From: a phage | Length of the DNA stretch: 64,000 nt | Strand: one strand, 5' to 3' | Sequence record: PZ445517.1 | Part shown: positions 1,248 through 30,155 of the stretch, one piece after another | Layout: each line of letters starts with the position of its first letter | Numbering within the stretch: the stretch's first letter is position 1 | Translations under genes and position numbers: made by a program | The notes under the pieces: generated by a model | Database searches by the model: none | The model's input: the letters and a program-made list of their open reading frames with translations, nothing else | Told to the model about the DNA's origin: nothing

Positions 1248-3944
1248 TCAGCCAAACAGGAAGTCTAACGAAGCTTTTTCTTCATAGTCCATACCCGCCG
1301 ATTCACACATACCCGCAAGCGGTTTAACAAACGATTTTTGGAACAAAGTTGAGTAGTCAATCCAAGACAGTACATCAGAACGAATTTCTTTTGGAAGTTC
1401 CGTACCCGATGGCCAAGCAATACACTTGTCACCAAATGGATTTCCCTCACGTAATGGAAGAACCATTACTTTATTTCCATCCAAAATTGGAGCTACACCT
1501 AAACCGCTAACAGCTCGACGATAAGTTAGCACCCCACGAATGTGGAACGGGCATTTAAATCCTGGCCAACCTTTATCGTCATATTTCGCTATATCGTTCG
1601 CGGTTTTTACTTCAGCAATAACTTTATAGTCAAGTTGACGATATTCTTTCTCAAAGTTCTTGTAGTATTCTTGGACAGACTCTTCACCTTCCTGAAGAAT
1701 ACGACGAATACTTTCTTCGAGAGCTTCTTGTACTGCTTTTGGTGTTGAACTCTGCTGAGTTTCCATACCCATGATTTTTAGATGTGGTTCAGCAAATCGC
1801 TTATCTTCCATATCATAAACGTTCAGAGCATAACGTTTTTTCGCTTTCCAAAATCCACCAACACCCTTTGAACCAAGCGGAGGACAAGAAATAGCTTCAC
1901 GGTCCATATGCATCAGATGCTCGCGGTTATTCATATAATCACATAACTCACGATATGCAACATCAATCATAGGTTCCATCTTTTTCTTACCGAACTGATT
2001 CATGAATTCAACTAAATCATTTTGTTCTTTAAAGCGGTCAAGACCTACTTTTTCAATAACTTTATCTACACAAACATATACAGAATCAGTATCACCCGCT
2101 GCGATGAAATCTTCGCCATTAGTTCCACACACCTTATTCAGGTATTCATTAATTTTACGAGCAATCCACTGAATACCAACTTGACCAAAAATTGTGATAG
2201 CAGTAGCATTTCGCAAATCATAGTAACGGAAATGAATATTACCAAGAGCACCATAAAGACTGTTGATAAGAATTTTACGGTTTAGCTGATTTGTGTTAGC
2301 AAGTGTAGCTGCTTTTTCACATTCTTCGATCAGACTATTAAGAACAGATTCGGTGTAATTCGATAATTCATTTAAGAAATCATCATTGAACTTAACATAT
2401 CGTTCAACTTCTGGTTTAGTTGAGCGAGACCCTGCACCTTTCATAATAATCTTTTTAATAGCTTCGGCATTCATTTCTTCGGCGAACATTTTCTTTTTCC
2501 AATCTTTACGTTGGAAAAATACTTTAGCGATTTCCTTTGGAATGATACCTTCTTGATGCTTATCATACATCCATCCATTCGGAGAACAAGAATATTCATC
2601 ACTTGGCTTAGGAGCTGTTCCTGCGATATATTCATGAATTGGATGAACTTTAAACTGACCACGAATAGTCTCAGGACTAATGTTAACCTGACGAATAATG
2701 CTAGGATACAGAGACGTCAAGTCAAAACTCATAATGTATCGACGAGCAATCGGTTTAGGTTCAAATACAAATGCACCTGGAAAACTTTGTTTAACGTGCG
2801 AACCTTGTTGAGGAATAACCTTATGTTCACCTTTCAACGAGTTAAAAATAATAGCATCCCAAGTTTTAATAGGACTCATTACACCAGAAAAAGGCATTTT
2901 AGCATAATAAGACATACTTAAAACTAGATCGATAAACCCACGAATTTTATCAATTGCTTGAACTGATTCTACGTCAATGATGTTATAACTAATGTATCGT
3001 TGATGATTAGTCTCACGAAGTTTATTAATAGGACCGTCGTATGGCAATTTACCTTTTTTGGTTTCATGTTGAGCAACTGATTCCAAAGAGAATGATGGCA
3101 AATTAGTAAATGCGAATTTCTTGTACAAATCTAAATAATCAAGAATAGATACGCCATCAATAGAATAAATTTCTTTGCTACCGTACATATTTTGAATTAG
3201 TTTAGATTTTACTCGACCGATTGGAGAGAAGCGTTTCATACTGCGTTCGCCCAGAACCATTTTAACACGATTCATGATATACGGAACGTCAAATCCCTCA
3301 ATATTCCAGCCGGTAAAAATAGCAGGTCTTTTCTGTTCCCAGAGATTAATATATTCCATGAGCATATCACGCTCATTATCAAATGGCATATAAATTACTC
3401 GGTCAAGAATTTCTTGAGGAACTTCATCACCACCTTCACAGTCAAGTTTAGCAGCTAACTTTGCATCCCATTTTGATACTGAACCGTACATTGAATTCAA
3501 CAAATCAAAGACGTAAAAACGGTCGTCAATTGAATCATAATGAGTGATAGCATCAATTTCATATTCTGCTTTCATTGGGTCAGGAAATTTATCACCAGTA
3601 ACCTCAATGTCACAGTTAGCTACACGAACAAATTTTCGGTCATAAACAATTTCTGAACCATATGTATCACTGATATAAGCGAGTTTAAAATCGTTCATAC
3701 CGAGAGCTTCGAGACCGATGTCTTCCATTCGTTTCATCCAATCTCGTGCATCTTTCATTGATGGAAATTTTTGAGGAGCGCAATTTTTACCGTAAATGTC
3801 TTTGTATTTTGATTCTTCCTTACAATGTCTAAACATAGTCGGAAGATATTCTACTTCGCGAGTACGTTCCTTTCCATTTTCATCAATATAACGTTCAACA
3901 ATATTATTTCCGACTGTTTCGATAGAGATATAAAATTCTTTCAT
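1248..3944 (-). CDS. 43: DNA polymerase (family B) gp43
   Basis: 898 aa, same as T4 gp43; exonuclease and polymerase motifs (e.g. YGDTDS); AAGGAA SD before ATG at 3944. Confidence 0.97.
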   Translation of the reverse strand: MKEFYISIETVGNNIVERYIDENGKERTREVEYLPTMFRHCKEESKYKDIYGKNCAPQKFPSMKDARDWMKRMEDIGLEALGMNDFKLAYISDTYGSEIVYDRKFVRVANCDIEVTGDKFPDPMKAEYEIDAITHYDSIDDRFYVFDLLNSMYGSVSKWDAKLAAKLDCEGGDEVPQEILDRVIYMPFDNERDMLMEYINLWEQKRPAIFTGWNIEGFDVPYIMNRVKMVLGERSMKRFSPIGRVKSKLIQNMYGSKEIYSIDGVSILDYLDLYKKFAFTNLPSFSLESVAQHETKKGKLPYDGPINKLRETNHQRYISYNIIDVESVQAIDKIRGFIDLVLSMSYYAKMPFSGVMSPIKTWDAIIFNSLKGEHKVIPQQGSHVKQSFPGAFVFEPKPIARRYIMSFDLTSLYPSIIRQVNISPETIRGQFKVHPIHEYIAGTAPKPSDEYSCSPNGWMYDKHQEGIIPKEIAKVFFQRKDWKKKMFAEEMNAEAIKKIIMKGAGSRSTKPEVERYVKFNDDFLNELSNYTESVLNSLIEECEKAATLANTNQLNRKILINSLYGALGNIHFRYYDLRNATAITIFGQVGIQWIARKINEYLNKVCGTNGEDFIAAGDTDSVYVCVDKVIEKVGLDRFKEQNDLVEFMNQFGKKKMEPMIDVAYRELCDYMNNREHLMHMDREAISCPPLGSKGVGGFWKAKKRYALNVYDMEDKRFAEPHLKIMGMETQQSSTPKAVQEALEESIRRILQEGEESVQEYYKNFEKEYRQLDYKVIAEVKTANDIAKYDDKGWPGFKCPFHIRGVLTYRRAVSGLGVAPILDGNKVMVLPLREGNPFGDKCIAWPSGTELPKEIRSDVLSWIDYSTLFQKSFVKPLAGMCESAGMDYEEKASLDFLFG

Positions 3945-4002
3945 AGATATTCCTTAGTTTATAGCCCGAGTTATTAGGCTCTTGATATATTATACTCCAA
4001 AT

Positions 4003-4021
4003 AAGGGGCCGAAGCCCCCTT
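4003..4021 (-). terminator. GC stem-loop with UUCG-type tetraloop (on RNA GGGGC-UUCG-GCCCC)
   Basis: aaggggccgaagcccctt directly after regA stop, upstream of gene 43 start. Confidence 0.5.
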
Positions 4022-4023
4022 GC

Positions 4024-4392
4024 TTAATTACCAATCGTATATTTAGGAACGAGTTTCCATTCATGTTTTTGCTTAAAAGAAATAACTCGGAAGTTATTAG
4101 TTAAATCTTTCATAAAAGTTCTTTGACCGGGAGCGATTTCAATCAGTCCCCAATCTTCTAACAGCCATGCAATCGAATCACGACGAACTTCATCTTCTTC
4201 TGTCATTTCAACTTGACGGCCATCCATACGAAGCATTTCTTTAAAATGAACGATATAGTATAGTCCTTTTTTCTGAAGAATATGACAGGACTGATACAGA
4301 ACTTTATCTTTATTATTAGCAATTCCCATACGAGTCAAAGTTTCTTTTACTTTCAGAAAATCTTCAGGTTTTTTAAGAGTAATTTCAATCAT
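4024..4392 (-). CDS. regA: translational repressor RegA
   Basis: 122 aa; MIEITLKKPEDFLKVKETLTRMGIANN matches remembered T4 RegA; between 62 and 43. Confidence 0.9.
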   Translation of the reverse strand: MIEITLKKPEDFLKVKETLTRMGIANNKDKVLYQSCHILQKKGLYYIVHFKEMLRMDGRQVEMTEEDEVRRDSIAWLLEDWGLIEIAPGQRTFMKDLTNNFRVISFKQKHEWKLVPKYTIGN

Positions 4393-4393
4393 T

Positions 4394-4957
4394 TTACCAT
4401 TCCAATGCTAGTTTTTTGAGTTGTTTCTGTTCTTTTACGTTCTTAGTCACTTCTTTCAAAAAATCATCCGTGACTAATCCTTTAAGTTCTTTTAATACTA
4501 AAGGAAGTTTTCCATTTTTAGTAAGAATTGATTTATAGTTAATTGCATCATTTGTATTAACTTGATATCGCTTAGCAAGTAACTTAATAATCAATACTTC
4601 GGTGGAATCTTCAACTAGTTTTGCCCATTTACCATATCTTTTACCCCGAGGAACAGCAGCCATCAGATAATTAAAATGGGCTTCATCGCTTAAACCTGAT
4701 CCAATTAAATTCATAGCATATACAGCTGGCATGCACTCTGGAAATTGTGATAATGCATTCTCAACCATGAATTTTGAATAATCTTTTTGAGCAATAGAGC
4801 ATTTAGTTTTATTATTAATAGCTCCAATTATTTCAAAAAACTCATTTTCAGCTTTTTCTTTAAAAGAATCAGCAGCGGATTGGACAGCTGTCCAATCTTT
4901 TGAATACCAAGCAACTTGATGCTCGTTTAATTGAATATCATCTTCAAATAAGCTCAT
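4394..4957 (-). CDS. 62: clamp loader small subunit gp62
   Basis: 187 aa from ATG 4955-4957 (MSLFEDDIQ...), T4 gp62 length; track start is an upstream extension. Confidence 0.85.
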
Positions 4958-4958
4958 A

Positions 4959-5918
4959 TCACTTCCACTGCATTTCACATGCTAACTGAATGAAAAGATA
5001 AGCTAGATGCAATTCAGTATTAGCTGCAATACCATGATACTGATTATTTTCGCCGACAATTTCGTACATACGAATAATACTCTGTGGAGTTACACGTGAA
5101 TAGATTTCTTCAGCAAGTTTACCCACGAACCACGAATAATCGGCTGCATATTTTGGTGCTAAAGCTCTGAGTTGTTTAACATCTTTATTTTTGAGAGACT
5201 CAAGAACATCATCAATAGCACCACGATCGTTAGTAACCAGTGATAAAATACCAGCATCCAAAACACCTTTAGATGAATAACTATCGAGCTCGCCAATAGT
5301 TTTACGAAAATCAGGAAAATTCTTTTTAACCAAAGCTGCTACAACTTTCATATCAGCTATAGCAATTCCTTCATGCTTACAGATTTCGGTCAACCGACGA
5401 ATCATCTGCTTCATCATTTCAATTTTATCTTCATCGGTCGGTTGACCGAATGTGATAACTCGACAGCGTGACTGAAGCGGTTTAATAATACCATCAATAT
5501 TGTTAGCAGTAATAATAATACTGCAGTTTGAACTATAAGCTTCCATAAAGGAACGAAGATGTCGCTGAGATTCTGCTAAACCTGAACGGTCAAATTCATC
5601 AATAACAATTACCTTTTGACGACCATCAAATGAAGCTGCACTCGCAAAATTAGTTAAAGGACCACGAACGAAATCAATTTTACAGTCTGATCCATTTACA
5701 AACATCATATCAGCATTTACGTCATGACACAATGCTTTTGCTACAGTTGTTTTACCTGTTCCTGGAGAAGGAGAATGAAGAATAATATGTGGAATCTTAC
5801 CTTTACTTGTAATAGATTTAAAGGTTTCTTTATCAAAGGCGGGAAGAATACATTCATCGATAGTAGATGGACGATATTTCTGTTCAAGAATGTGTTCTTT
5901 TTCATTTACGGTAATCAT
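4959..5918 (-). CDS. 44: clamp loader ATPase subunit gp44 (AAA+)
   Basis: 319 aa from ATG 5916-5918 with GAGGAAA SD; Walker [11 protein letters not shown]; track start at 5933 is a TTG extension. Confidence 0.9.
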
Positions 5919-17400: not shown

Positions 17401-18229
17401 TTATATATTTCCAATTATAGCCTTCAACACTTTTACGTTCGCCATTTAAACATTTTAAAATATTTCCTTTGCTAGAAATATTAAAATATTTTGCTGCGTC
17501 TGGTATATAATTAAATGTTTTTAAAAGAACACCATCTTTATATGCGCCAAATAAATTAAGAGTATATTTTTCTCGAAGACGCTGATGTTTCCTTTTCATA
17601 ACCTCAGGATTTGCATACGCCAACTTCAATGAATTTCTGTGTTTTTCTTTTACTTCAGGTTTTTGCATTGCTAACTTAGTTAGCCTGGAAATTTTATTTC
17701 TAACTTCGTCAGTTTTCATTGCATTTGACAAATTTAATAAAGTTTTATTTCTAACTTCAGGTTTTTGCATTGCTAACTTAGTTAGTTCTCTATGTCTTTT
17801 TCTAAAATCGTCATCCTTCCATATATTTTTCGATAATTTTGACATAGAGCGGTGAAATAATTCCTTTTCACTGGAATACAATTTAAAAATTTCATCCAAT
17901 TCATCCGCATTAAATCTATCGGTATTCGAGTTTATCATTCTATGAAAGGCATAACACATTTTACTATTGCTTGTTTTAGCTAAATAGTAATGAGCTAACG
18001 CATGGTCATAATATGACAAATTAACAATATTCCATTTATCTGTTTTATATTCAGGAAATATAGATTTGGGAAGCACGTGATGTGCTTCCGTTTTTCCTTT
18101 TATTTTAGGATTATTATAATTTTTTGTTATCAAATCAACATATGACAATAGTAAATCATTATTTTCTTCAAATATTAAAGCTAATTTATCATTCACAAAA
18201 TCGCAAGGATAAAATCTATCATAATTCAT
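17390..18229 (-). CDS. HNH homing endonuclease, mobC-like, wedged between nrdD and nrdG
   Basis: EAHHVLPKS HNH motif, repeated KLAMQKPEV NUMOD-like modules, C-terminal GYNWKY; ATG overlaps nrdD stop (ATGA); first 13 codons mimic the nrdG start. Confidence 0.75.
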   Translation of the reverse strand: MNYDRFYPCDFVNDKLALIFEENNDLLLSYVDLITKNYNNPKIKGKTEAHHVLPKSIFPEYKTDKWNIVNLSYYDHALAHYYLAKTSNSKMCYAFHRMINSNTDRFNADELDEIFKLYSSEKELFHRSMSKLSKNIWKDDDFRKRHRELTKLAMQKPEVRNKTLLNLSNAMKTDEVRNKISRLTKLAMQKPEVKEKHRNSLKLAYANPEVMKRKHQRLREKYTLNLFGAYKDGVLLKTFNYIPDAAKYFNISSKGNILKCLNGERKSVEGYNWKYINEL

Positions 18230-20043
18230 TGGTGTTTAACCCTATGCATGATTTCTTTATTTTTACCGAGATTAAATCCGCGTTCATTCGGATTTCCCAA
18301 ATAACCACATGTTCTTCTTATTGTGTTCATCTTTTTAGGATCAGTTTCTCCACAGATAGAACAAACAAATCCGTTTTCAGTAGGAGTCATTTCATGGGTA
18401 CTTCCGCATGTAAAACACTTATCTACTGGCATATTAACACCAAAATAATCTAAATGCTGTGCAGCATAATCCCACACGGCCTCAAGACCTTTTAAGTTAT
18501 TTTTCATATCTGGAAGTTCAACATAAGAAATGTGACCGCCGGTCGCTATGAAATGATAAGGCGCTTCACGAGAAATCTTTTCAAACGGAGTAATATTTTC
18601 TTCTACTGAAACATGGAAACTGTTAGTGTACCAGCCTTTATCGGTAACATCCTTTACACTTCCATATTTTTCTGTATCGAGTTTACAGAAGCGATAACAA
18701 AGGTTTTCAGCAGGAGTAGAATACAAGCTAAAAGCAAATCCAGTTCTTTCAGTCCACTGTTTAAGACGAGCATTCATTTTAGTTAAAATTTCTCGTCCAA
18801 TATCACGACCTACAAGAATATTCAATTCGTGAATACCAATGTATCCTAGAGACACTGAACTTCTGCCATTTTTAAATAACTCAATTATATCGTCATCAGG
18901 TTTAAGACGAACCCCGAATGCACCTTCTTGGTAAAGAATAGGAGCAACAGTCGCTTTAACTCCTTTTAAGGAACTAATTCTACACATCAAAGCTTCAAAA
19001 CACAAATCCATTCGTTCATTGAACAATTCAACAAATTTCTGTTCATTGAATTGTGTTCCAATATAAGAATCTAACGCGATACGAGGAAGATTCAGTGTTA
19101 CAACACCGAGATTATTACGTCCATCAAGAATTTCATTACCAGTCGAATCTTTCCATACACTCAAGAAACTACGGCAACCCATTGGAGAAACAGGAATAGA
19201 TGAACCGGTGATAGCTTTATTATTCTTAACTGAAATAATATCAGGATACATTCTTTTGCTTGCGCATTCTAGAGCGAGCTGCTTAATATCATAGTTCGGA
19301 TCGTCTTTATAAAGATTAACACCTTCTTCAACGAACATAACAAGCTTAGGGAAAATAGGAGTTATCCCATCACGGCCAAGACCTTTAATACGATTTTTCA
19401 GAATTGCTTTCTGAATCATTCGTTCAGTCCAGTCAGTTCCCGTACCAAACGTAATTGTTACAAAAGGCGTTTGTCCGTTTGAACTAAAGAGAGTATTTAC
19501 TTCATATTCATAAGCTTGGAATGCATCGTATACGTCTTTTTCTGTTTTAGATTGGGCGTAATTCAACGCATCAGCGATTTGCCATTTTTCTGCGTCCTCA
19601 ATATGTTTTGCATAGGTGCGTTTAACATAAGGAGAAAGTACTTTATCTACATTCGCAAAAGTCGTTCCGCCATATTGATGAGAAGCAACCTGTGCAGTAA
19701 TTTGTGCCATAATTGCAGTAGCAACGCCGATTGATTTAGGAGTTTCAATCTGTGCATTACCGAGCTTAAATCCGTTCTCAAGCATTCCTTTTAAATCTAC
19801 TAAACAGCAATTAGTAAATGGAAGAGCAGGGGAATAATCAATATCATGGAAATGGATAATTCCGCTTTCATGCGCTTTCATAATAAAAGACGGGACCATA
19901 TTTTTGGCAATGTGTTTAGACACAATACCAGCCATAAGGTCCCGTTGAGTTGGAAAAACACGAGAATCTTTATTAGCATTCTCGTTTAAAAGGTCTTTAT
20001 TAGTTTTATGAATCAATCCTTCAATTTCTTTTTCAATTGTCAT
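18226..20043 (-). CDS. nrdD: anaerobic ribonucleoside-triphosphate reductase NrdD (glycyl radical enzyme), uninterrupted
   Basis: 605 aa continuous ORF; glycyl radical motif RTCGYLG near C-terminus; no intron. Confidence 0.93.
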   Translation of the reverse strand: MTIEKEIEGLIHKTNKDLLNENANKDSRVFPTQRDLMAGIVSKHIAKNMVPSFIMKAHESGIIHFHDIDYSPALPFTNCCLVDLKGMLENGFKLGNAQIETPKSIGVATAIMAQITAQVASHQYGGTTFANVDKVLSPYVKRTYAKHIEDAEKWQIADALNYAQSKTEKDVYDAFQAYEYEVNTLFSSNGQTPFVTITFGTGTDWTERMIQKAILKNRIKGLGRDGITPIFPKLVMFVEEGVNLYKDDPNYDIKQLALECASKRMYPDIISVKNNKAITGSSIPVSPMGCRSFLSVWKDSTGNEILDGRNNLGVVTLNLPRIALDSYIGTQFNEQKFVELFNERMDLCFEALMCRISSLKGVKATVAPILYQEGAFGVRLKPDDDIIELFKNGRSSVSLGYIGIHELNILVGRDIGREILTKMNARLKQWTERTGFAFSLYSTPAENLCYRFCKLDTEKYGSVKDVTDKGWYTNSFHVSVEENITPFEKISREAPYHFIATGGHISYVELPDMKNNLKGLEAVWDYAAQHLDYFGVNMPVDKCFTCGSTHEMTPTENGFVCSICGETDPKKMNTIRRTCGYLGNPNERGFNLGKNKEIMHRVKHQ

Positions 20044-20561: not shown

Positions 20562-21026
20562 TTAAAACGCTCGGTCAGAAAAAGAAATTTGAGTTTCAAG
20601 CCATTCAATATATTCTGCCGCGGCTTGCATTAAATTTCCTTCATAACCATCGTTATTTTCTTGTGCAGCTAATTTAGCTAATGCATATGAAATGCGTTCA
20701 CCTTGAAAAGCGGCTTTAGGTTTATGAATAACTTGATCAACTCGTTCTACGACCTCTTCAATTTCGCCATTTTCTACTGATTCAGTATTCCACAAGCACC
20801 AATACGTAATTGGCTTATCGTAGATGTTAATAATCTTTCCATCAGAAAGTTCAATTTCAATAATTCCAGTATCAGGTTCTATATCATCTTCGCATTCTTT
20901 TGCAAGTTCACGAACTTTAAAGACAGTACCTGCACTAAGTTCCGGCCAATAATTACACAGCCCTTTATCAGCACGATTAATTCTAAACCACTTATCTACT
21001 GTAATCATGCCCCATCTCCATATCAA
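20562..21026 (-). CDS. hypothetical protein (pin position)
   Basis: 154 aa ORF downstream of 49; identity with Pin not verifiable. Confidence 0.5.
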   Translation of the reverse strand: MIWRWGMITVDKWFRINRADKGLCNYWPELSAGTVFKVRELAKECEDDIEPDTGIIEIELSDGKIINIYDKPITYWCLWNTESVENGEIEEVVERVDQVIHKPKAAFQGERISYALAKLAAQENNDGYEGNLMQAAAEYIEWLETQISFSDRAF

Positions 21027-21131: not shown

Positions 21132-21452
21132 TTATAGCGTAATCCATTCTCGTACTGTCTGAGTTACTACACGTTCACAGGGCTCGACTAGTTCAACAGT
21201 CGGAACTGCATAATACCAGTCAGAATGGTAAGAACCTGAGCGAGATTCATTTACAGACACATGAACGTTATGTTTTGGACTAAAATAAACGCACTGCCGA
21301 TATTGGCATTTGCCATCTTGTACCCAATCTTCTATTTCGATAGGTTTAAGATAATCCGAAAAATCGAAATCATAATTTTCTGAAAATGCATCGTGGTCTT
21401 CGATGATTTCACTCAGAACTGCATCAATATCTAATTTATTTTCAATATTCAT
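21132..21452 (-). CDS. hypothetical acidic protein
   Basis: 106 aa ORF. Confidence 0.5.
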   Translation of the reverse strand: MNIENKLDIDAVLSEIIEDHDAFSENYDFDFSDYLKPIEIEDWVQDGKCQYRQCVYFSPKHNVHVSVNESRSGSYHSDWYYAVPTVELVEPCERVVTQTVREWITL

Positions 21453-21462
21453 TTTTCACCAA

Positions 21463-21657
21463 TTAATTTCGCAATTTATTAAGTTCTTCATAATCAATCC
21501 AGGATTCTAGTCCTGACGGCAAATCAGATTCAATTTCCCAAAGAAGCTCTTCAATTTTCTGAAGACGATCTAATTCTTCAGCTGGAATAGTAACCATTGA
21601 TGGAGTTCTTGATACACTAATATCGTAAATCATATTTACCCCAGTTTGACCATACAA
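21463..21657 (-). CDS. hypothetical protein
   Basis: 64 aa ORF. Confidence 0.4.
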   Translation of the reverse strand: MYGQTGVNMIYDISVSRTPSMVTIPAEELDRLQKIEELLWEIESDLPSGLESWIDYEELNKLRN

Positions 21658-21851
21658 TCACCGTATTTCCACTTAGAAATAGACTTTTCACCATTAGAAT
21701 AATAAACTTCAAGTTTAGCACGATTATTTTTAATTTGAATAACCTTGGCTGTCATCAAAGTTCCATACCCATAGTAAACTGCAACTTCATCACCTACATA
21801 TACCGCGCTTCCGCGGTAATCGTGAATATAGTCAGTTCCTTCGAGCATCAT
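21636..21851 (-). CDS. hypothetical protein
   Basis: 71 aa ORF. Confidence 0.45.
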   Translation of the reverse strand: MMLEGTDYIHDYRGSAVYVGDEVAVYYGYGTLMTAKVIQIKNNRAKLEVYYSNGEKSISKWKYGDCMVKLG

Positions 21852-22112: not shown

Positions 22113-22370
22113 TTATTCCTTAATTCCTAGTACTTGTTTAAAAGTCTCGTCATAATCAAGACTTTGGCCCGTTTGTTCTTTATGTTTGTATATAATATCA
22201 CTTACTTCTGATAGCATATTTTTATATGAACGAGTTAAAGCAGATTTAAGCACGCTGTATCTATCAGGAAATTTACCATGTTCATTATAATAAGCTATTG
22301 CTAATTCACGGACTGCCTTTTCAGCAGTCTCCATATATTCTTTACGCTTGGTCATTTTCTTCTCTGTCAA
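22113..22370 (-). CDS. hypothetical protein
   Basis: 85 aa ORF. Confidence 0.5.
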
Positions 22371-22638
22371 ATCGGTGTTTACAATGACGACATTTATAAC
22401 GAAGATTACTAGTCTGCCAATGAACTAATTGTACCTGTTCAGTACCGCATTCAGGACAATTAGGAACGCTTTTAGAAGCCCTTTCGCGACGTTCAACCAT
22501 AGCCATAATGGCATCCCAAGCTGGAGGTTTAAAATCTAAATCGTCAGTAACTAGCAGTCCTTTATCAAACCCAGCGCATGGAGTCCATTCAGGAAAATCT
22601 GAAGCTTCGGCAATATCTTCTAATAAACGCTTTTTCAT
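22342..22638 (-). CDS. zinc-ribbon protein
   Basis: CPECG...CRHCKH paired CxxC motifs. Confidence 0.5.
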
Positions 22639-23561
22639 TTCAGTACCTCAATAGCATCACGTAAACCATTTGCTTTGGCGGTTAAAGCCTTAATAACTTT
22701 AGTATGCTCTTCAATCTGTTTTTCAACTTCAATCAAACGGGCACTGAGATATTCGCGTTCTTCTTTCATAGTATCATTCCCATGATTGGGCTTTGGCGTA
22801 GATTTAAATTTACTAGGGTCCTTTAACTTAATAACAACTTTAGTTTCAAACAGTGAAAGACCATAATTTGTATTATCATCAAAGGATTCAACTACGTCCA
22901 TTTTAGATAATAACGTGCGAAGATTATAAGTCAAAGAACGAATCGTTTTATTATGTTTATTAGCTTCGCACGGTTTCATATATGGAAGATTTTTATATAT
23001 TTCATGCGGAGCACAAACAATAATTGACAATTCAAATGGTCCATTCTGTGATGATGGAATGAATTTAGCTGTAACCCAATCTTTTACATTTACATTAATA
23101 GTACGGTCATCGCCATGACAAAACAGTCTACGAGAATGCTTAAAAAGCATATTCACGTTATTATTAAATTCATGTGAAAACTCACTAGCAAATTTTTCTT
23201 TACTATTTTTAGAAAACCATTCTTCTAAATAAGTTCTTTTCACGTCATTAATAATATTAAATGTAACAACATTAGCATTTGATACATTAGTCTCAATGTA
23301 GCTTGGATACATAAATTTTTTAACATTATTAACAGCTATCACAGAAGATAGTAATCGGGAACGTTTGAACCACTCTAGCAAAGAACCAAGAGAATGTGAA
23401 TATGCATTTTGTGTATCTTTACAAATATGGTTTTCCCATCCAATATAGTCTAAAAAATCACGAAGAATATTATTGATTACTGCTCTGTGTCCAATCTGAT
23501 AACTACGGTGTTTAGTAATAAGACTGTCAAAATAATCAATATAATGTTTACGAGTTTTCAT
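22635..23561 (-). CDS. paralog family member 1 (C-terminal coiled coil)
   Basis: 308 aa; N-terminus MKTRKHYIDYF; C-terminal heptad-rich helix; one of four tandem paralogs. Confidence 0.6.
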   Translation of the reverse strand: MKTRKHYIDYFDSLITKHRSYQIGHRAVINNILRDFLDYIGWENHICKDTQNAYSHSLGSLLEWFKRSRLLSSVIAVNNVKKFMYPSYIETNVSNANVVTFNIINDVKRTYLEEWFSKNSKEKFASEFSHEFNNNVNMLFKHSRRLFCHGDDRTINVNVKDWVTAKFIPSSQNGPFELSIIVCAPHEIYKNLPYMKPCEANKHNKTIRSLTYNLRTLLSKMDVVESFDDNTNYGLSLFETKVVIKLKDPSKFKSTPKPNHGNDTMKEEREYLSARLIEVEKQIEEHTKVIKALTAKANGLRDAIEVLK

Positions 23562-23613
23562 GTTCTTCTCACTTGGTTAATGATTTATGCTCCGAGCCAT
23601 CCTTGGCTTTAAA

Positions 23614-24645
23614 TTACTTAATTAACTGTAAAGCTTGTTCAAGACGATCCAGGCGATTAACAGATTCTTCCCAAATCTTTTTAGCCTGCTCATATTCTTT
23701 CTGCGCTTTATTAGAAATTTCTAGAACTTCTTTATAAGCTTTTTCTAATGCAATAACTTCTGGACGAATTTCTGCCGGTTCAGGCGAATCATCAAGATTA
23801 TCCATTAGTTCCTCAAGGGTAGTTTCTTCTTTAGGAGTATTCACAATTTCATCACATTTTTGTTGGTAAATTTCTTTATCAGTCGGTGAGTACGCACACT
23901 TTACTTCACGAAGACTAACTACAATTTTATATCCTTCCCAACCGCATATATTCTTAAAAGGATATGTATGAATATTTTCTACTGTTTCCATACAAAGTAA
24001 TGCAGTCTCTAACTGACGAGTTATAGTGCTAGCAATTGAGAAAAATTTATTAATATTCTTTTGGTTAGCGTTTGGTGTAAAAAATCCATAATTCACAAAA
24101 ATAGCTACTTTATTTTCATCAAGCTCATATTCTTTTACGATAATCATATCAGAAGCCAAAGGATGAATTTGACGATAATCGCCATAACATAATTTAGAAG
24201 CTGATTTTAGAATTTGTCCTTTGAAAAGTCTGAAATTACTAATCCAACGACGAGTAAAAATATTCTCAGGGTCTTCTTTATTATTAAGATGATAAGAATT
24301 AACATCACCGAACCAATTATATCCTACTACATCTTTGGTTCGTTTAATTTCTTTCCCAAAATTACCAAGAATATCCCGATTAACCAAATATGAAAGAAGA
24401 CGAGACTCTTTAAAAGTTTTCTTGATAACATCTTTATCTACACGGCTAGAAATTTTACGAATTTCATGAATAAATTTAGTAGAAGAAACAATACTTGCAT
24501 CAACACTATTGAGCCATTGATTGATAATAGAAAGAACGATATTTTGACCAAACATCGGTATAGCTTTATCATCAATAACGCTATTGAATGATTTGATATA
24601 TTCGTTACGAGTCATATTAATCTCCTCATTAGAAAGTAAGAACAT
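23614..24645 (-). CDS. paralog family member 2 (C-terminal coiled coil)
   Basis: 343 aa; same architecture as neighbours. Confidence 0.6.
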   Translation of the reverse strand: MFLLSNEEINMTRNEYIKSFNSVIDDKAIPMFGQNIVLSIINQWLNSVDASIVSSTKFIHEIRKISSRVDKDVIKKTFKESRLLSYLVNRDILGNFGKEIKRTKDVVGYNWFGDVNSYHLNNKEDPENIFTRRWISNFRLFKGQILKSASKLCYGDYRQIHPLASDMIIVKEYELDENKVAIFVNYGFFTPNANQKNINKFFSIASTITRQLETALLCMETVENIHTYPFKNICGWEGYKIVVSLREVKCAYSPTDKEIYQQKCDEIVNTPKEETTLEELMDNLDDSPEPAEIRPEVIALEKAYKEVLEISNKAQKEYEQAKKIWEESVNRLDRLEQALQLIK

Positions 24646-24672
24646 TATACCACATCCTTGTGGCGAAGTAAA

Positions 24673-25698
24673 CTAGTTTAGTGCATTTAGTGCATTGTTC
24701 AGTTTAGAACGTTGCTTTGTCAGATTTTGAACCCTTGACTGAGCTTGTTCTAACACCTTTTCAGCTTCTAGCACTTCATTGGTCGCTTTAACGAGTTCAT
24801 CATCTACTGCCTTAAGAGACTTCTCAATCGCGTCAGCGTGCCATTTTTCTACAGGTTTAAGACTCGGATTTTCAACAGGAAGAAAATTCACTTTATTGAA
24901 TTTCCATGCATCATTATTACCTGAACTATACATCCAAAATTTAGAATCGTTTGATGAGTAATTGGATAAATTTAAATTTAAATTATCTTGCACTTCTTGC
25001 TTTTTCTCTTGCGGGACTTCGTCCTTTCTCAAAAAATCGTATTTAAATGAAACGATCATATCAAGTTCATATGTTGTCGTATCTAACTTAAATCGTTCAA
25101 AACGAGGTAAAATCTTAGATTGAACAGCAGCAACAACATCCATATACTTAAATGCTTCTGTCAACTGTGATTTAAGGCATTCACAAATTGAAAGAGAATT
25201 TTTTGTATTAGGTTTAAAGCTAATTCGTGCAGTTCTATTATTTTCTTTTAACGGTCTTACTTCCATCTGAAGAGTATAACCATCAAATTTCAGATTCTTT
25301 AAGTTAATATCAGAACCTTTTAATCGACTAGCCGTAGACAAAATTTGCTTTAATTGTTTACGGAATAGAGCAATAAATCTCCATTCAAGACGATAATGAT
25401 TTGGATTAAAAAATCCTGTTGATAAATCAACCTTACTCTGACCAACGCCTTGAACAAATAGAGGATTTTTATAATCAATAGTTTTACAGAAATCGGTGAG
25501 CTGCTCACGAGCAGTCATTTGTGTAATATATCCCGCTTTACTAAAATGACGTAACCATTCACTGCTATTCATATACTTAAAGTGAATATCACGATTAACT
25601 TTATCAGGGTCTAAATTATTTTGGCACAAAAATGTCATAACATTACGTGTATAGCTAGCATTACGAACCATATCTTCAATTTGAGAACGAGTTTTCAT
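24673..25698 (-). CDS. paralog family member 3 (C-terminal coiled coil)
   Basis: 341 aa; N-terminus MKTRSQIEDM. Confidence 0.6.
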   Translation of the reverse strand: MKTRSQIEDMVRNASYTRNVMTFLCQNNLDPDKVNRDIHFKYMNSSEWLRHFSKAGYITQMTAREQLTDFCKTIDYKNPLFVQGVGQSKVDLSTGFFNPNHYRLEWRFIALFRKQLKQILSTASRLKGSDINLKNLKFDGYTLQMEVRPLKENNRTARISFKPNTKNSLSICECLKSQLTEAFKYMDVVAAVQSKILPRFERFKLDTTTYELDMIVSFKYDFLRKDEVPQEKKQEVQDNLNLNLSNYSSNDSKFWMYSSGNNDAWKFNKVNFLPVENPSLKPVEKWHADAIEKSLKAVDDELVKATNEVLEAEKVLEQAQSRVQNLTKQRSKLNNALNALN

Positions 25699-25706
25699 GG
25701 TGTTCC

Positions 25707-26615
25707 TTAAGATTTAAGTAAATCAACAATTTTAATTAATTTTTCACGCTCAGATTTAGCTTTACTACTCAGTCCAGATAGTCTGAAAATTTCATCATCA
25801 TATTGCTGAATAGAAATATTCAGCTCTTCAATCTGCTTATTAAAATAATCAATTTGTTCAGAATGTTTTTCGTTACTACGAACTGGTACAGGTTTTGTAG
25901 GCAATTTAGTTGAACTGGATTCATCCGGGCGATAAATTAAAATACAACTTGAACCAATAGGGCATTTTGCACCAGATGAATATTCTAATGTTCCGGCTTC
26001 TTTTAAAACTTCAAAAGCTAAACAGAGATGATGACCCATATTGACATAATCTGTAGAGCGAGCTCTGATGTAATAATCATCTCCGCGAATACTAAATTTA
26101 AAGCATTTAAGGTCTTCTGTATTATTGGTCTTAAAAATCATTTGTTTATCTAGACCTTTAGCTAATCGAGCGCCTAATGCTAATAATCGTCGTTGATTTT
26201 CCCACAAATCCGCAATCATTTGATCAAATGATAATTTCGGCATTAGTCGACCATAAAGGTCGTATCCTTTATTATAATTGCGAAGGATTTCACTCGCATT
26301 AATACGAGACAATGCTCCAATTTTATTAAGGGCTTTCATGATGCGATTAGATAAACCCATTCCAGACCCGTTTGTTCGTTGTAAATGTTTATCTAATCCA
26401 AACCCAATATCAACTTTAAATTTATCTAAAATTTCAGCATGAACATCTCTGTCAATAACATTCAAATCCAAAGTTGGGTTAAATCTATGAAAAAATTTAT
26501 CTGGCTCTCCACGACGAAGTACAGTCCATTCATTCAATTTTTTATTAACTAAAGATTTAATTACTGCATTGACATTATTAATTACGACTGACATATTTTC
26601 CTCACTCAATTTCAA
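25707..26615 (-). CDS. paralog family member 4 (C-terminal coiled coil)
   Basis: 302 aa. Confidence 0.6.
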   Translation of the reverse strand: MKLSEENMSVVINNVNAVIKSLVNKKLNEWTVLRRGEPDKFFHRFNPTLDLNVIDRDVHAEILDKFKVDIGFGLDKHLQRTNGSGMGLSNRIMKALNKIGALSRINASEILRNYNKGYDLYGRLMPKLSFDQMIADLWENQRRLLALGARLAKGLDKQMIFKTNNTEDLKCFKFSIRGDDYYIRARSTDYVNMGHHLCLAFEVLKEAGTLEYSSGAKCPIGSSCILIYRPDESSSTKLPTKPVPVRSNEKHSEQIDYFNKQIEELNISIQQYDDEIFRLSGLSSKAKSEREKLIKIVDLLKS

Positions 26616-27617: not shown

Positions 27618-27655
27618 GTTGTATAGTACCACAGAGGAACGGTCTTGTAAACAAC
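27618..27655 (-). promoter_or_regulatory. T4-type early promoter
   Basis: gttgatagttgtatagtaccac ... gtaaac block. Confidence 0.6.
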
Positions 27656-28058: not shown

Positions 28059-29039
28059 TTATTTCAGAAGAGTAACCTCAGCAATTTCTTCCCAACCATT
28101 TTTGTCGGTCATAATAAAGTCAGCAAGATAAAGAGCAGTACGCAGTGAAACATTGCGTAAACGATTAACATTGACTTTCATCCATGATAATGCTTTATAA
28201 GTTTCTTCATCAGAAAGACCGCGCTTTTGCATCATGTCAGTTGAAAGAATAACATCTTCAACCCTGACCATAATTTCTTCATTAGTGTGAACACCCAAAT
28301 CCAAATAAACCGAGCGGGACACTAATGCTTGTAAGTGTGGGGCAAGTTTAGTACCACGGTCTAATTCGCGGTCAATGTCAACGTTTGTGATAAAAACAAT
28401 CGTTCCTTTAAATTCAAACTCACGCTCAATGCCTTTTTCTTCTAAGTAAGAAGATGCAGTGCTCCAGCAGACTTTACGGGTCTCTCCAGTGTCCAGAGCA
28501 GCTTTCAGAAGATTAAGAATGTCCATATCAGAGAAAACATCCACATCATCAATCAAAAGGACAGAATTCTCTTCACGATTATTCCAAAGCTGCTCATAAA
28601 GACCAATACCAGAGATTTTACCATTAATGCTTTTATATTCAATGTATCCATTATCATTTGCTTTATTTAAAGCTTTATCTAAAGAATACGTTTTACCAAT
28701 ACCTGCTGCGCCAGAGATAATTAATGAACGAATATTTCCATTAATAATACCATTCGTCATCATTCCCATAACATTAAATCTTTTATTAATGCGGGTTTTC
28801 ATATCTTCATATGATTCTTTAACTTCTTCAACTTTTACACCATCATATGAAATATCTGATTTGTAAACCCAAACACCACGACGTTTACCGTCAATTTCAA
28901 CAAAAACTTTACCATCTCCTTGTGCATCTACCGGAGCATTATCTGGGAACCATTCGCCTAAGAGCTCAAAAGTTCCAGAGATTTCTTTACCGAAGTAGAT
29001 ACCCTTATTGATAGTTACAGTTTTCATTTTATTCTCCAA
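28059..29039 (-). CDS. AAA+/P-loop ATPase
   Basis: Walker A GAAGIGKT, Walker B LLIDDVD; 326 aa; own early promoter upstream. Confidence 0.7.
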   Translation of the reverse strand: MENKMKTVTINKGIYFGKEISGTFELLGEWFPDNAPVDAQGDGKVFVEIDGKRRGVWVYKSDISYDGVKVEEVKESYEDMKTRINKRFNVMGMMTNGIINGNIRSLIISGAAGIGKTYSLDKALNKANDNGYIEYKSINGKISGIGLYEQLWNNREENSVLLIDDVDVFSDMDILNLLKAALDTGETRKVCWSTASSYLEEKGIEREFEFKGTIVFITNVDIDRELDRGTKLAPHLQALVSRSVYLDLGVHTNEEIMVRVEDVILSTDMMQKRGLSDEETYKALSWMKVNVNRLRNVSLRTALYLADFIMTDKNGWEEIAEVTLLK

Positions 29040-29057: not shown

Positions 29058-29095
29058 TTGTATAGTACCATAAAGCTTTATGCTTGTAAACAGTT
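29058..29095 (-). promoter_or_regulatory. T4-type early promoter
   Basis: gttgatagttgtatagtacca ... gtaaacagttttgtgaaaaa. Confidence 0.6.
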
Positions 29096-29120: not shown

Positions 29121-29140
29121 AGGGAGCCCGAAGGCTCCCT
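29121..29140 (-). terminator. UUCG-type hairpin (GGGAGCC-UUCG-GGCUCCC)
   Basis: agggagcccgaaggctccct right after stop of 29142..30155. Confidence 0.5.
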
Positions 29141-29141
29141 A

Positions 29142-30155
29142 TCATTTATAATAACTTCGGTGGTTTTCAAGATAAACCCTCTCAAGGAAGTCATCCCAGA
29201 AACCCATGTCTACTTTTTGCTGCATACCGTTTTTAGAAGCTTCAATGGATGCTGCTTCTACTTGATCGACAACATCTTCCAAAAACTCTTGAACCGTTTT
29301 AAATGGATGTTTACCCAACTTCACGTCGAGAATAAATGGAGCATCTTGGAGTGGATAAACCAAGTCACCAGTTTTGTAAATTTCCAATAGTTGGAGCCCG
29401 CCACGGCAAGCATGACTTAGAGCTTTCCAATCAATGCCTTCATTCGCTTCAGCTTTACGAGCGCGTTCACCATATTCAGCATCAAGTTTATTCAAAGACT
29501 GCTTAAGCTCAATAAGAGAAAGCGTTGTCTGATATTTACGACCCAACACAGTATAGAACGTTTGCGGGCCTGTTTTCTCATGATTATGGAATACCCATTC
29601 GCAGAATTCGTTTTCTGGAAGACGGTGTTTAATATCTGCAATTTTAGTACGACGTTGTCCTTGTGTTCCATCTTCTCGGTAATCAACCCACTGATCGGGG
29701 ATTTGATTAACTACTTTCAATACATCACGCAATGCGGCCAAACGAGAACCCTTAACACCATATTTAGAAGCTTGCTTGCGGACATATCCTAAATAGGATT
29801 TCATGTTAGTCGTATAAAAACGAGAACGATTGTCTTGGATAAATTTCCACACATCAGGTAAATCAGATTTAACCACTAGTTCAGGTGGAGTGTGAAGCAT
29901 ATCCAATGCTACAGTTTCACCATCTGCTGCTAATTTAAAGAAATACTTAAGACTGTATAGTTCATGGTCAATATCATCTTTAGTGTTTTTAGATGATGTG
30001 TTGTTAGTGTTTTTACTCATATGCTCTTTAACATTTCCGATAAGAATATCGCGAGCAGGAGGAACAAAGATTTCTTTAAAATCCACATCAGATTCTGGAG
30101 TAGAAGTTCCATAAAGATGACTACCAAAATAGCTTTTCATTACTGTTTTCATCAT
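29142..30155 (-). CDS. nucleotidyltransferase-fold protein (Pol-beta superfamily-like)
   Basis: N-terminal GSHLYGTSTPESDVDF (GS-x9-DxD) motif typical of minimal nucleotidyltransferases; 337 aa. Confidence 0.55.
   Translation of the reverse strand: MMKTVMKSYFGSHLYGTSTPESDVDFKEIFVPPARDILIGNVKEHMSKNTNNTSSKNTKDDIDHELYSLKYFFKLAADGETVALDMLHTPPELVVKSDLPDVWKFIQDNRSRFYTTNMKSYLGYVRKQASKYGVKGSRLAALRDVLKVVNQIPDQWVDYREDGTQGQRRTKIADIKHRLPENEFCEWVFHNHEKTGPQTFYTVLGRKYQTTLSLIELKQSLNKLDAEYGERARKAEANEGIDWKALSHACRGGLQLLEIYKTGDLVYPLQDAPFILDVKLGKHPFKTVQEFLEDVVDQVEAASIEASKNGMQQKVDMGFWDDFLERVYLENHRSYYK

Follow-up and report, generated by a model that had tools for sequence, protein, structure and literature searches.

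In a 64,000-nucleotide stretch of phage DNA (sequence record PZ445517.1), the whole of which we analysed and refer to as the window, the minus strand carries four consecutive open reading frames (ORFs) that separate nrdC.2 from nrdC.7. Upstream of this array are nrdC.11 to nrdC.7, and downstream of it are nrdC, pin, gene 49 and nrdD. A preliminary description, made from the letters of the DNA, had taken the four ORFs for tandem paralogs that each end in a coiled coil, and the consecutive minus-strand arrangement it gave is confirmed by the ORF coordinates, which at their maxima are 22635-23561, 23614-24645, 24673-25698 and 25707-26615. According to the RB18 and reference-T4 annotations, the genes are nrdC.3, nrdC.4, nrdC.5 and nrdC.6. 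Of the more than 700 T-even phage records that match the array together with its flanks (5.7 kb), only Escherichia phage T4_ev240 is 100% identical. The window differs from reference T4 here, as the four array proteins are 94-97% identical to the reference-T4 proteins; records titled 'Tequatrovirus T4' have identities to the array genes similar to the reference-T4 values.

Two of the maximal ORFs are longer than the genes they contain. The ATG that opens the longer nrdC.4 ORF (24645) falls inside the TATAAT -10 box of a promoter-like site, and a second ATG at 24615 (MTRNEY..., 333 amino acids (aa)) lies 7 nucleotides (nt) after a Shine-Dalgarno sequence, GAGGAG. For these two reasons we took 24615 as the start of nrdC.4. 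In nrdC.6, the start is the ATG at 26594 (MSVVINN..., 295 aa), which is preceded by GAGGAAAA. Both choices match the T4, RB18 and T4_ev240 annotations. The nrdC.5 start is 8 nt from the nrdC.6 stop, and an AAGGAA overlaps that stop. With these starts the coding sequences, labelled paralogs A to D in this order and all on the minus strand, are nrdC.3 at 22635..23561 (308 aa, the ORF itself), nrdC.4 at 23614..24615 (333 aa), nrdC.5 at 24673..25698 (341 aa) and nrdC.6 at 25707..26594 (295 aa). The ORFs are indeed similar in size, but the range of 302-343 aa given previously reflects ORF maxima and does not hold for nrdC.4 and nrdC.6. Similarly, the M(K)TR-x-EY N-terminus once ascribed to all four proteins is present in nrdC.3, nrdC.4 and nrdC.5 but not in nrdC.6.

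Kinship of the four proteins

Databases split the array into three families. In PHROGs, nrdC.3 and nrdC.4 both belong to phrog_1435 (expect (E) values of 3.3e-100 and 4.2e-169), nrdC.5 to phrog_2351 and nrdC.6 to phrog_2257 (E 4.8e-153). The Pfam families are PF26897, PF23882 and PF26899. Over residues 1-341, nrdC.5 matches DUF7235 (PF23882) with 402.8 bits and E 1.4e-120, far above the cut-off of 30 below which nrdC.3 (11 bits), nrdC.4 and nrdC.6 all remain. The other two assignments were read from homologs: those of nrdC.4, at 33-98% identity, carry PF26897, and all 105 homologs of nrdC.6 carry PF26899. Plain all-against-all BLASTP connects only nrdC.3 and nrdC.4, and it does so weakly (23% identity across 242 aa, with E 0.003 from a very small database).

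Family alignments compared with hhalign reach further. The nrdC.3 and nrdC.4 alignments match each other with 98.3% probability (E 2.5e-14, 211 columns), and nrdC.5 matches the combined nrdC.3 and nrdC.4 alignment with 92% probability (E 5e-7, 149 columns). Using a deeper nrdC.5 profile, to which two distant members from an exhaustive HMMER search were added, the latter match rises to 95.5% probability (E 1.4e-8) over 235 collinear columns. Additionally, the nrdC.3 allele of phage Manna matches nrdC.4 by BLASTP with E 3e-7. On the strength of these profiles, we consider nrdC.3, nrdC.4 and nrdC.5 to be homologous with high confidence. An all-against-all alignment, the check proposed in advance, would by BLASTP alone have wrongly rejected most pairs, while profiles link three of the four proteins.

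The exhaustive HMMER search, run with the nrdC.5 profile on 1.84 billion proteins, produced no bridge to the other array families. It shows that the nrdC.5 family is very narrow, with 13 representatives at E up to 1e-3; only four of these are genuine near-full-length members, and P0237 is an artefact of repeats. Scans of Pfam, NCBIfam, PADLOC and PDB sequences yielded nothing beyond DUF7235 for nrdC.5, and their remaining matches were low-score coiled-coil noise, such as BrxC at E 0.001 and designed helical repeats. We rejected nrdC.8 as a short fifth member (hhalign probability of at most 0.7%); Acj61p118 is likewise unrelated.

In all four proteins, the last 42 residues keep the a/d heptad pattern without a break, in a register that is the same when counted from the C-terminus, and end in L-x-x-A/I-L/I/V-x-x-L-K or a close variant. 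Among 2000 shuffles of each protein, the heptad score was reached by 14 for nrdC.3, 5 for nrdC.4, none for nrdC.5 and 5 for nrdC.6. On the minus strand, the heptad helix of nrdC.3 is encoded at 22638..22763 (residues 267-308, heptad score 0.57) and the C-terminal helix of nrdC.4 at 23617..23763 (residues 285-333; helix 285-332 in its AlphaFold2 (AF2) model). That of nrdC.5 lies at 24676..24843, or about residues 286-341; its boundaries are approximate, as the heptad test covered the last 42 residues, and 28-residue windows starting at residues 284-314 score at least 0.7. The helix of nrdC.6 is encoded at 25710..25862 (residues 245-295; AF2 helix 245-294). Thus the shuffles, together with the AF2 helices of nrdC.4 and nrdC.6, support the coiled coil that had been claimed for all four proteins. 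An isolated amphipathic helix of ~50 residues in a monomer model suggests a partner. In two families, those of nrdC.3 and nrdC.4, conservation is highest in the tail and lowest in the alpha/beta core or the linker.

Structure comparison within the array is based on AF2 monomer models of nrdC.4 (mean predicted local distance difference test (pLDDT) 83.3, predicted template modelling score (pTM) 0.69) and nrdC.6 (pLDDT 77.4, pTM 0.65). The two models have the same order of secondary-structure elements: N-terminal helices, a trio of helix, helix and short helix, a beta-hairpin, a long helix and a second beta-hairpin. Both then end in a low-pLDDT linker followed by a single helix of ~50 residues. 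A three-strand beta meander after the N-terminal helices is found in nrdC.4 only, and nrdC.6 has 2-3 isolated bridge residues. In Foldseek searches of BFVD, the nrdC.4 model matched an nrdC.3 ortholog (E 1.9e-7) and, over its full length, a phage JS10 protein annotated as nrdC.6 (E 8.9e-5, probability 1.0). It also matched ~15 uncharacterised Straboviridae proteins of 300-370 aa, from phages whose hosts are Enterobacter, Pectobacterium, Acinetobacter, Klebsiella, Erwinia, Serratia and Yersinia, and eight of these were matched by the nrdC.6 model too (E 1e-7 to 8e-4). The TM-scores are modest (0.3-0.5) and the root-mean-square deviations large, as is expected when flexible linkers join domains; long helices can also inflate Foldseek matches. 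A model of nrdC.5 was absent from the matches of both fold searches, so this protein is linked to the others through its sequence only.

A motif that we derived post hoc, [ILM][LF]..[AGS].[RK]L.{1,3}G.{0,1}D, occurs four times in all six-frame ORFs of the window, exactly once in each array protein and always within residues 119-152. Its matches, on the minus strand, are LFKHSRRLFCHGDD in nrdC.3 (23106..23147, residues 139-152), ILKSASKLCYGD in nrdC.4 (24178..24213, residues 135-146), ILSTASRLKGSD in nrdC.5 (25309..25344, residues 119-130) and LLALGARLAKGLD in nrdC.6 (26148..26186, residues 137-149). In the two models the motif occupies an equivalent helix pair, spanning helix 132-140 and the turn before helix 145-148 in nrdC.4, and helix 134-144 and the start of helix 147-150 in nrdC.6, where it falls within the stretch that the family conserves best. 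Since these same sequences yielded the motif, we treat it as supporting evidence only.

These comparisons bear on the place of nrdC.6, which has no significant sequence-profile similarity to nrdC.3, nrdC.4 or nrdC.5: its best pooled hhalign run gave 55% probability (E 1.2e-4, 74 columns), and otherwise P was 0.002-0.05. It could be an unrelated neighbour of a three-member family that converged on the same size and C-terminal helix, and its separate PHROG and Pfam families, as well as its different N-terminus, fit that account. Nevertheless, we think this improbable. The weak hhalign matches always fall on one collinear segment, residues ~50-150 of nrdC.6, and the order of secondary-structure elements is that of nrdC.4. 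The nrdC.4 model finds JS10 nrdC.6 directly and the two models have eight intermediates in common, the motif lies at the equivalent helix pair, the heptad register equals that of the other array proteins, and a natural in-frame nrdC.6/nrdC.4 chimera is known. Taken together, the predicted structures make nrdC.6 very probably a more distant member of the array fold family. The description of the genes as four tandem paralogs therefore stands for nrdC.3, nrdC.4 and nrdC.5 by profiles and is extended to nrdC.6 by predicted structure, as sequence similarity does not reach significance there.

Similar folds may also occupy this slot in a distant relative. In Acinetobacter phage Acj61, the genome in which we checked the synteny of similar-fold proteins, p120 (330 aa) and p121 (304 aa) are adjacent between nrdC and nrdC.10 (3452-5472), in the same slot as the T4 array. 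By length they correspond to BFVD entries E5E4A1 and E5E4A2, which both AF2 models match, and each terminates in a long, charged helix that contains an L-x-K-A-L motif. Acj61p120 and Acj61p121 have no sequence link to the T4 families, and their connection is by structure and by synteny, the latter an independent line of support. On these models, they are a tandem pair of the same predicted fold in another subfamily, the Twarogvirinae. A different tandem duplication in Acj61, the adjacent 372-aa ORFs Acj61p076 and Acj61p077 (3028-5322), which are annotated as mutual copies and lie next to gene 40, is apparently unrelated to the nrdC.3-6 locus.

Variation of the array and its surroundings

Presence of the four genes varies among phages. 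By tblastn, nrdC.3 was found in 654 phage-collection records, nrdC.4 in 554, nrdC.5 in 582 and nrdC.6 in 742, and a search of viral contigs for nrdC.3-related loci returned two near-identical loci only. Among otherwise near-identical Tequatroviruses, nrdC.3 falls into discrete allele classes of ~93-100%, 60% and 55% identity. Compared with Mosigvirus KMB38, nrdC.3 is 56%, nrdC.5 25% and nrdC.6 32% identical and nrdC.4 is absent, whereas this comparison gives 78-99% identity for nrdD, 49, nrdC, nrdC.8 and nrdC.10. The array slot holds three copies in KMB38 and two in Acj61.

Natural rearrangements of the array are also common. A 2.7-kb deletion in ACG-C40 (6302-6713), with end points equivalent to ~25496 and ~22776 in the window, takes out all of nrdC.4 and most of both nrdC.5 and nrdC.3; what remains is a 72-aa ORF from the nrdC.5 N-terminus and a C-terminal piece of nrdC.3. 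In P0056, residues 145-273 of nrdC.5 are joined in frame to residues 134-308 of an nrdC.3 allele at an N-x-V-N microhomology. Salmonella phage Manna (2715-3752) has lost nrdC.5 and most of nrdC.4 and carries another in-frame chimera, in which nrdC.6 residues 1 to ~268 are followed by the linker and C-terminal helix of nrdC.4, with the junction at a QQ..DEI microhomology. Shigella phage Sf25 (P0058) has an nrdC.6 with an 83-aa internal tandem duplication, Pinarejo retains a C-terminal remnant of nrdC.6, and P0231 (173 aa) fuses an unrelated N-terminus to an nrdC.5 C-terminal helix of 89% identity. One further record, P0236, looks like an assembly chimera. The natural chimeras suggest that swaps of head and tail are tolerated. 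Elevated divergence, allele classes, changes in copy number and chimeras lend indirect support to the idea, put forward earlier, of selection for variation.

The gap between nrdC.5 and nrdC.4 is filled by the promoter-like site that overlaps the longer nrdC.4 ORF (24644..24672, minus strand). It consists of gTTTACT, a 17-nt spacer and TATAAT with an upstream TG, which amounts in a consensus scan to 10 of 12 consensus matches plus an extended -10, and it may function as a promoter of the T4-early type. Further promoter-like sites of the form TTTACA-17-TACTAT with an upstream TG lie ahead of nrdC.8 and nrdC.10 (27623-27651 and 29062-29090, minus strand). Just after nrdC.11 there is a strong GC-rich hairpin (29121-29140, both strands, AGGGAGCC-TTCG-GGCTCCCT), followed by a run of T. 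The hairpin and promoter-like sites suggest that nrdC.11 to nrdC.3 are divided among several early transcription units.

Several neighbours of the array are noteworthy in their own right. Gene gp49.2 (21132-21452, minus strand), 1.2 kb downstream of the array, is 96% identical to its reference-T4 counterpart, and the Gp49.2 protein of T6 inhibits the OLD defence nuclease (2026, PMC13096335). Another gene here is pin, the Lon inhibitor (20562-21008), and the stretch from pin to nrdC.6, with pin, gp49.2 and nrdC.5, looks like an island rich in anti-defence genes. Adjoining the array, nrdC.2 (22342-22638, minus strand) encodes 98 aa with two CxxC pairs and is 63-66% identical to the T4, ECO4 and ACG-C40 versions, and nrdC.1 and nrdC beside it are 99-100% identical; judging from these identities, nrdC.2 is another sharply bounded allelic replacement. 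Gene 49.3 is replaced at 21463-21851 (minus strand) by two small ORFs like RB32ORF081c/082c. The window's nrdD (18226-20043, minus strand) is a single uninterrupted ORF of 605 aa, whereas reference T4 nrdD has the I-TevII intron. On the other side, nrdC.10, with a Walker-A-like GAAGIGKT, and nrdC.11, an annotated nucleotidyltransferase (28059-29027 and 29142-30152, minus strand), are conserved even in Acj61, unlike the array between nrdC and these genes.

Possible functions of the array

The preliminary description considered the function of these genes to be unknown, which is incorrect for nrdC.5. One T4 clone that carries compensatory deletions fails to plate on either ECOR17 or MG1655 with ECOR17 dsr1, and expressing T4 nrdC.5 restores its plating on E. 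coli with ECOR17 Dsr1 (Srikant, Guegler, Laub, eLife 2022, PMC9391042). That study gives no mechanism for nrdC.5 and does not name its neighbours as relatives. The window's nrdC.5 is 94% identical to the tested reference-T4 protein and is in the same position. Our literature search found no mention of nrdC.3, nrdC.6 or DUF7235, and found nrdC.4 once, in a genome announcement. Hence the annotations of the genes and the anti-Dsr1 function of nrdC.5 are already known. What appears to be new is that four genes in three database families constitute one fold family with a common coiled-coil tail, and that many Straboviridae have similar predicted folds, in Acj61 as a syntenic tandem pair.

We favor the interpretation, which we hold to be reasonably probable, that nrdC.3 to nrdC.6 are anciently duplicated and strongly diverged paralogs encoding non-essential counter-defence proteins with a head and an oligomerising tail. 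Each protein would have a variable head, made of an N-terminal helical region and an alpha/beta core, then a short disordered linker and an amphipathic heptad helix of 42-56 residues. The proteins would be made before the late proteins, a timing to which the paper's description and the consensus promoter match both point. They are dispensable: spontaneous loss of 'nrdC.1-6' leaves T4 viable (PMC9825161). The heads may each bind and neutralise a different immune protein of the host, and the C-terminal helix may oligomerise the protein as a coiled coil, which would raise its avidity where the immune protein is multimeric. In the case of nrdC.5, the target would be the SIR2 NADase Dsr1, probably bound directly and so not switched on when late phage proteins appear. 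Recombination within the array would reshuffle heads and tails. The host-interaction or anti-defence role proposed at the outset is thus borne out for nrdC.5; for nrdC.3, nrdC.4 and nrdC.6 we infer it from paralogy, early expression, dispensability, fast divergence and location.

Several results pull the other way. In addition to the missing profile similarity of nrdC.6, the modest TM-scores, the possible inflation by long helices and the lack of an nrdC.5 model among the fold-search matches, tail-over-head conservation is clear in only two of the four families, as the nrdC.5 and nrdC.6 families are more uniform. Neither an enzyme motif nor a binding motif was recognised in the array proteins, and searches of PADLOC, NCBIfam and PDB sequences were empty. 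The protein tested against Dsr1 was the reference-T4 allele rather than the window's variant, which is 94% identical to it. Furthermore, the passages of PMC9391042 that deal with nrdC.5 describe plasmid complementation of a multi-gene deletion clone and report neither binding nor a single-gene knockout. We rejected an enzymatic function, as there is no conserved cluster of catalytic-type residues and no match to an enzyme family.

Counter-defence might instead be confined to nrdC.5, with the other three being host-takeover or housekeeping paralogs or decaying copies. The literature that we searched reports no phenotype for nrdC.3, nrdC.4 or nrdC.6, natural loss or truncation of these three genes is frequent (ACG-C40, Pinarejo, Manna and KMB38), and the entire nrdC.1-6 block is dispensable (PMC9825161). 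Yet four intact ORFs with their own ribosome-binding sites persist in hundreds of phage genomes (554-742 records), conservation within families is strong (e.g., ~70 invariant columns in the nrdC.6 family) and the natural chimeras remain in frame. Patchy presence combined with intact ORFs is the pattern of conditionally useful anti-defence genes, and we regard a restriction to nrdC.5 as unlikely. Two other accounts concern immune sensors. In a 2026 preprint (PMC12803255), a phage major capsid protein is reported to trigger E. coli Dsr1 through its TPR-type sensor domain, and related sensors are reported to recognise folded virion proteins, tail terminators included. The array proteins could mask triggers, binding phage or host proteins that would otherwise be sensed and hiding them from immune sensors until assembly, which we judge somewhat less likely again. 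A still longer shot, taking all of its parts jointly, is that the array and its same-slot counterparts in Straboviridae form a diversifying cassette of immune-sensor decoys. The head would then derive from a virion tail-terminator-like fold, repurposed as early-made bait that occupies the structure-recognising (TPR-type) sensor domains of Dsr1, Avs and similar proteins before the real virion proteins appear. The common coiled-coil tail would permit homo- and hetero-oligomers, and recombination between paralogs would generate new combinations of head and tail. Interest in such a cassette would be high if it proved true.

Returning to the interpretation of the array as a set of diverged counter-defence paralogs, the link to nrdC.5 makes nrdC.3, nrdC.4 and nrdC.6 candidate inhibitors of other bacterial immune systems. 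Even in T4, the best studied of phages, the majority of accessory genes lack an assigned function. The predicted design of head and coiled-coil tail is open to dissection by domain swaps, and, if the syntenic position holds widely, the locus could mark host-range determinants in therapeutic phages.

Among known systems, the array was compared with the phage tail-terminator or tail-completion fold (lambda gpU, DUF3168, SPP1 gp17-like proteins and T5 p142). A virion tail-terminator role was rejected: the proteins have no Pfam tail-terminator match, the genes lie between nrdC and nrdC.7, they are dispensable, and the promoter-like site points to early timing. Like the array genes, TifA, AdfA, Dmd, IPI and Gp49.2 are small to medium-sized, non-essential and patchily distributed in variable regions, but they have no sequence relation to the array and none is described as tandem paralogs with a coiled-coil tail. 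DSAD1 of an SPbeta-like phage, described in PMC11087589 as neutralising the defence-associated sirtuin NADase DSR2 by binding, shows no similarity in sequence or fold to the array proteins; by analogy, it may serve as a model for the proposed action of nrdC.5 on Dsr1. With respect to T4 NrdC.5 and its family DUF7235, the nrdC.5 of the window is the ortholog, nrdC.3 and nrdC.4 are paralogs detectable by sequence, and nrdC.6 is a probable relative at the level of structure.

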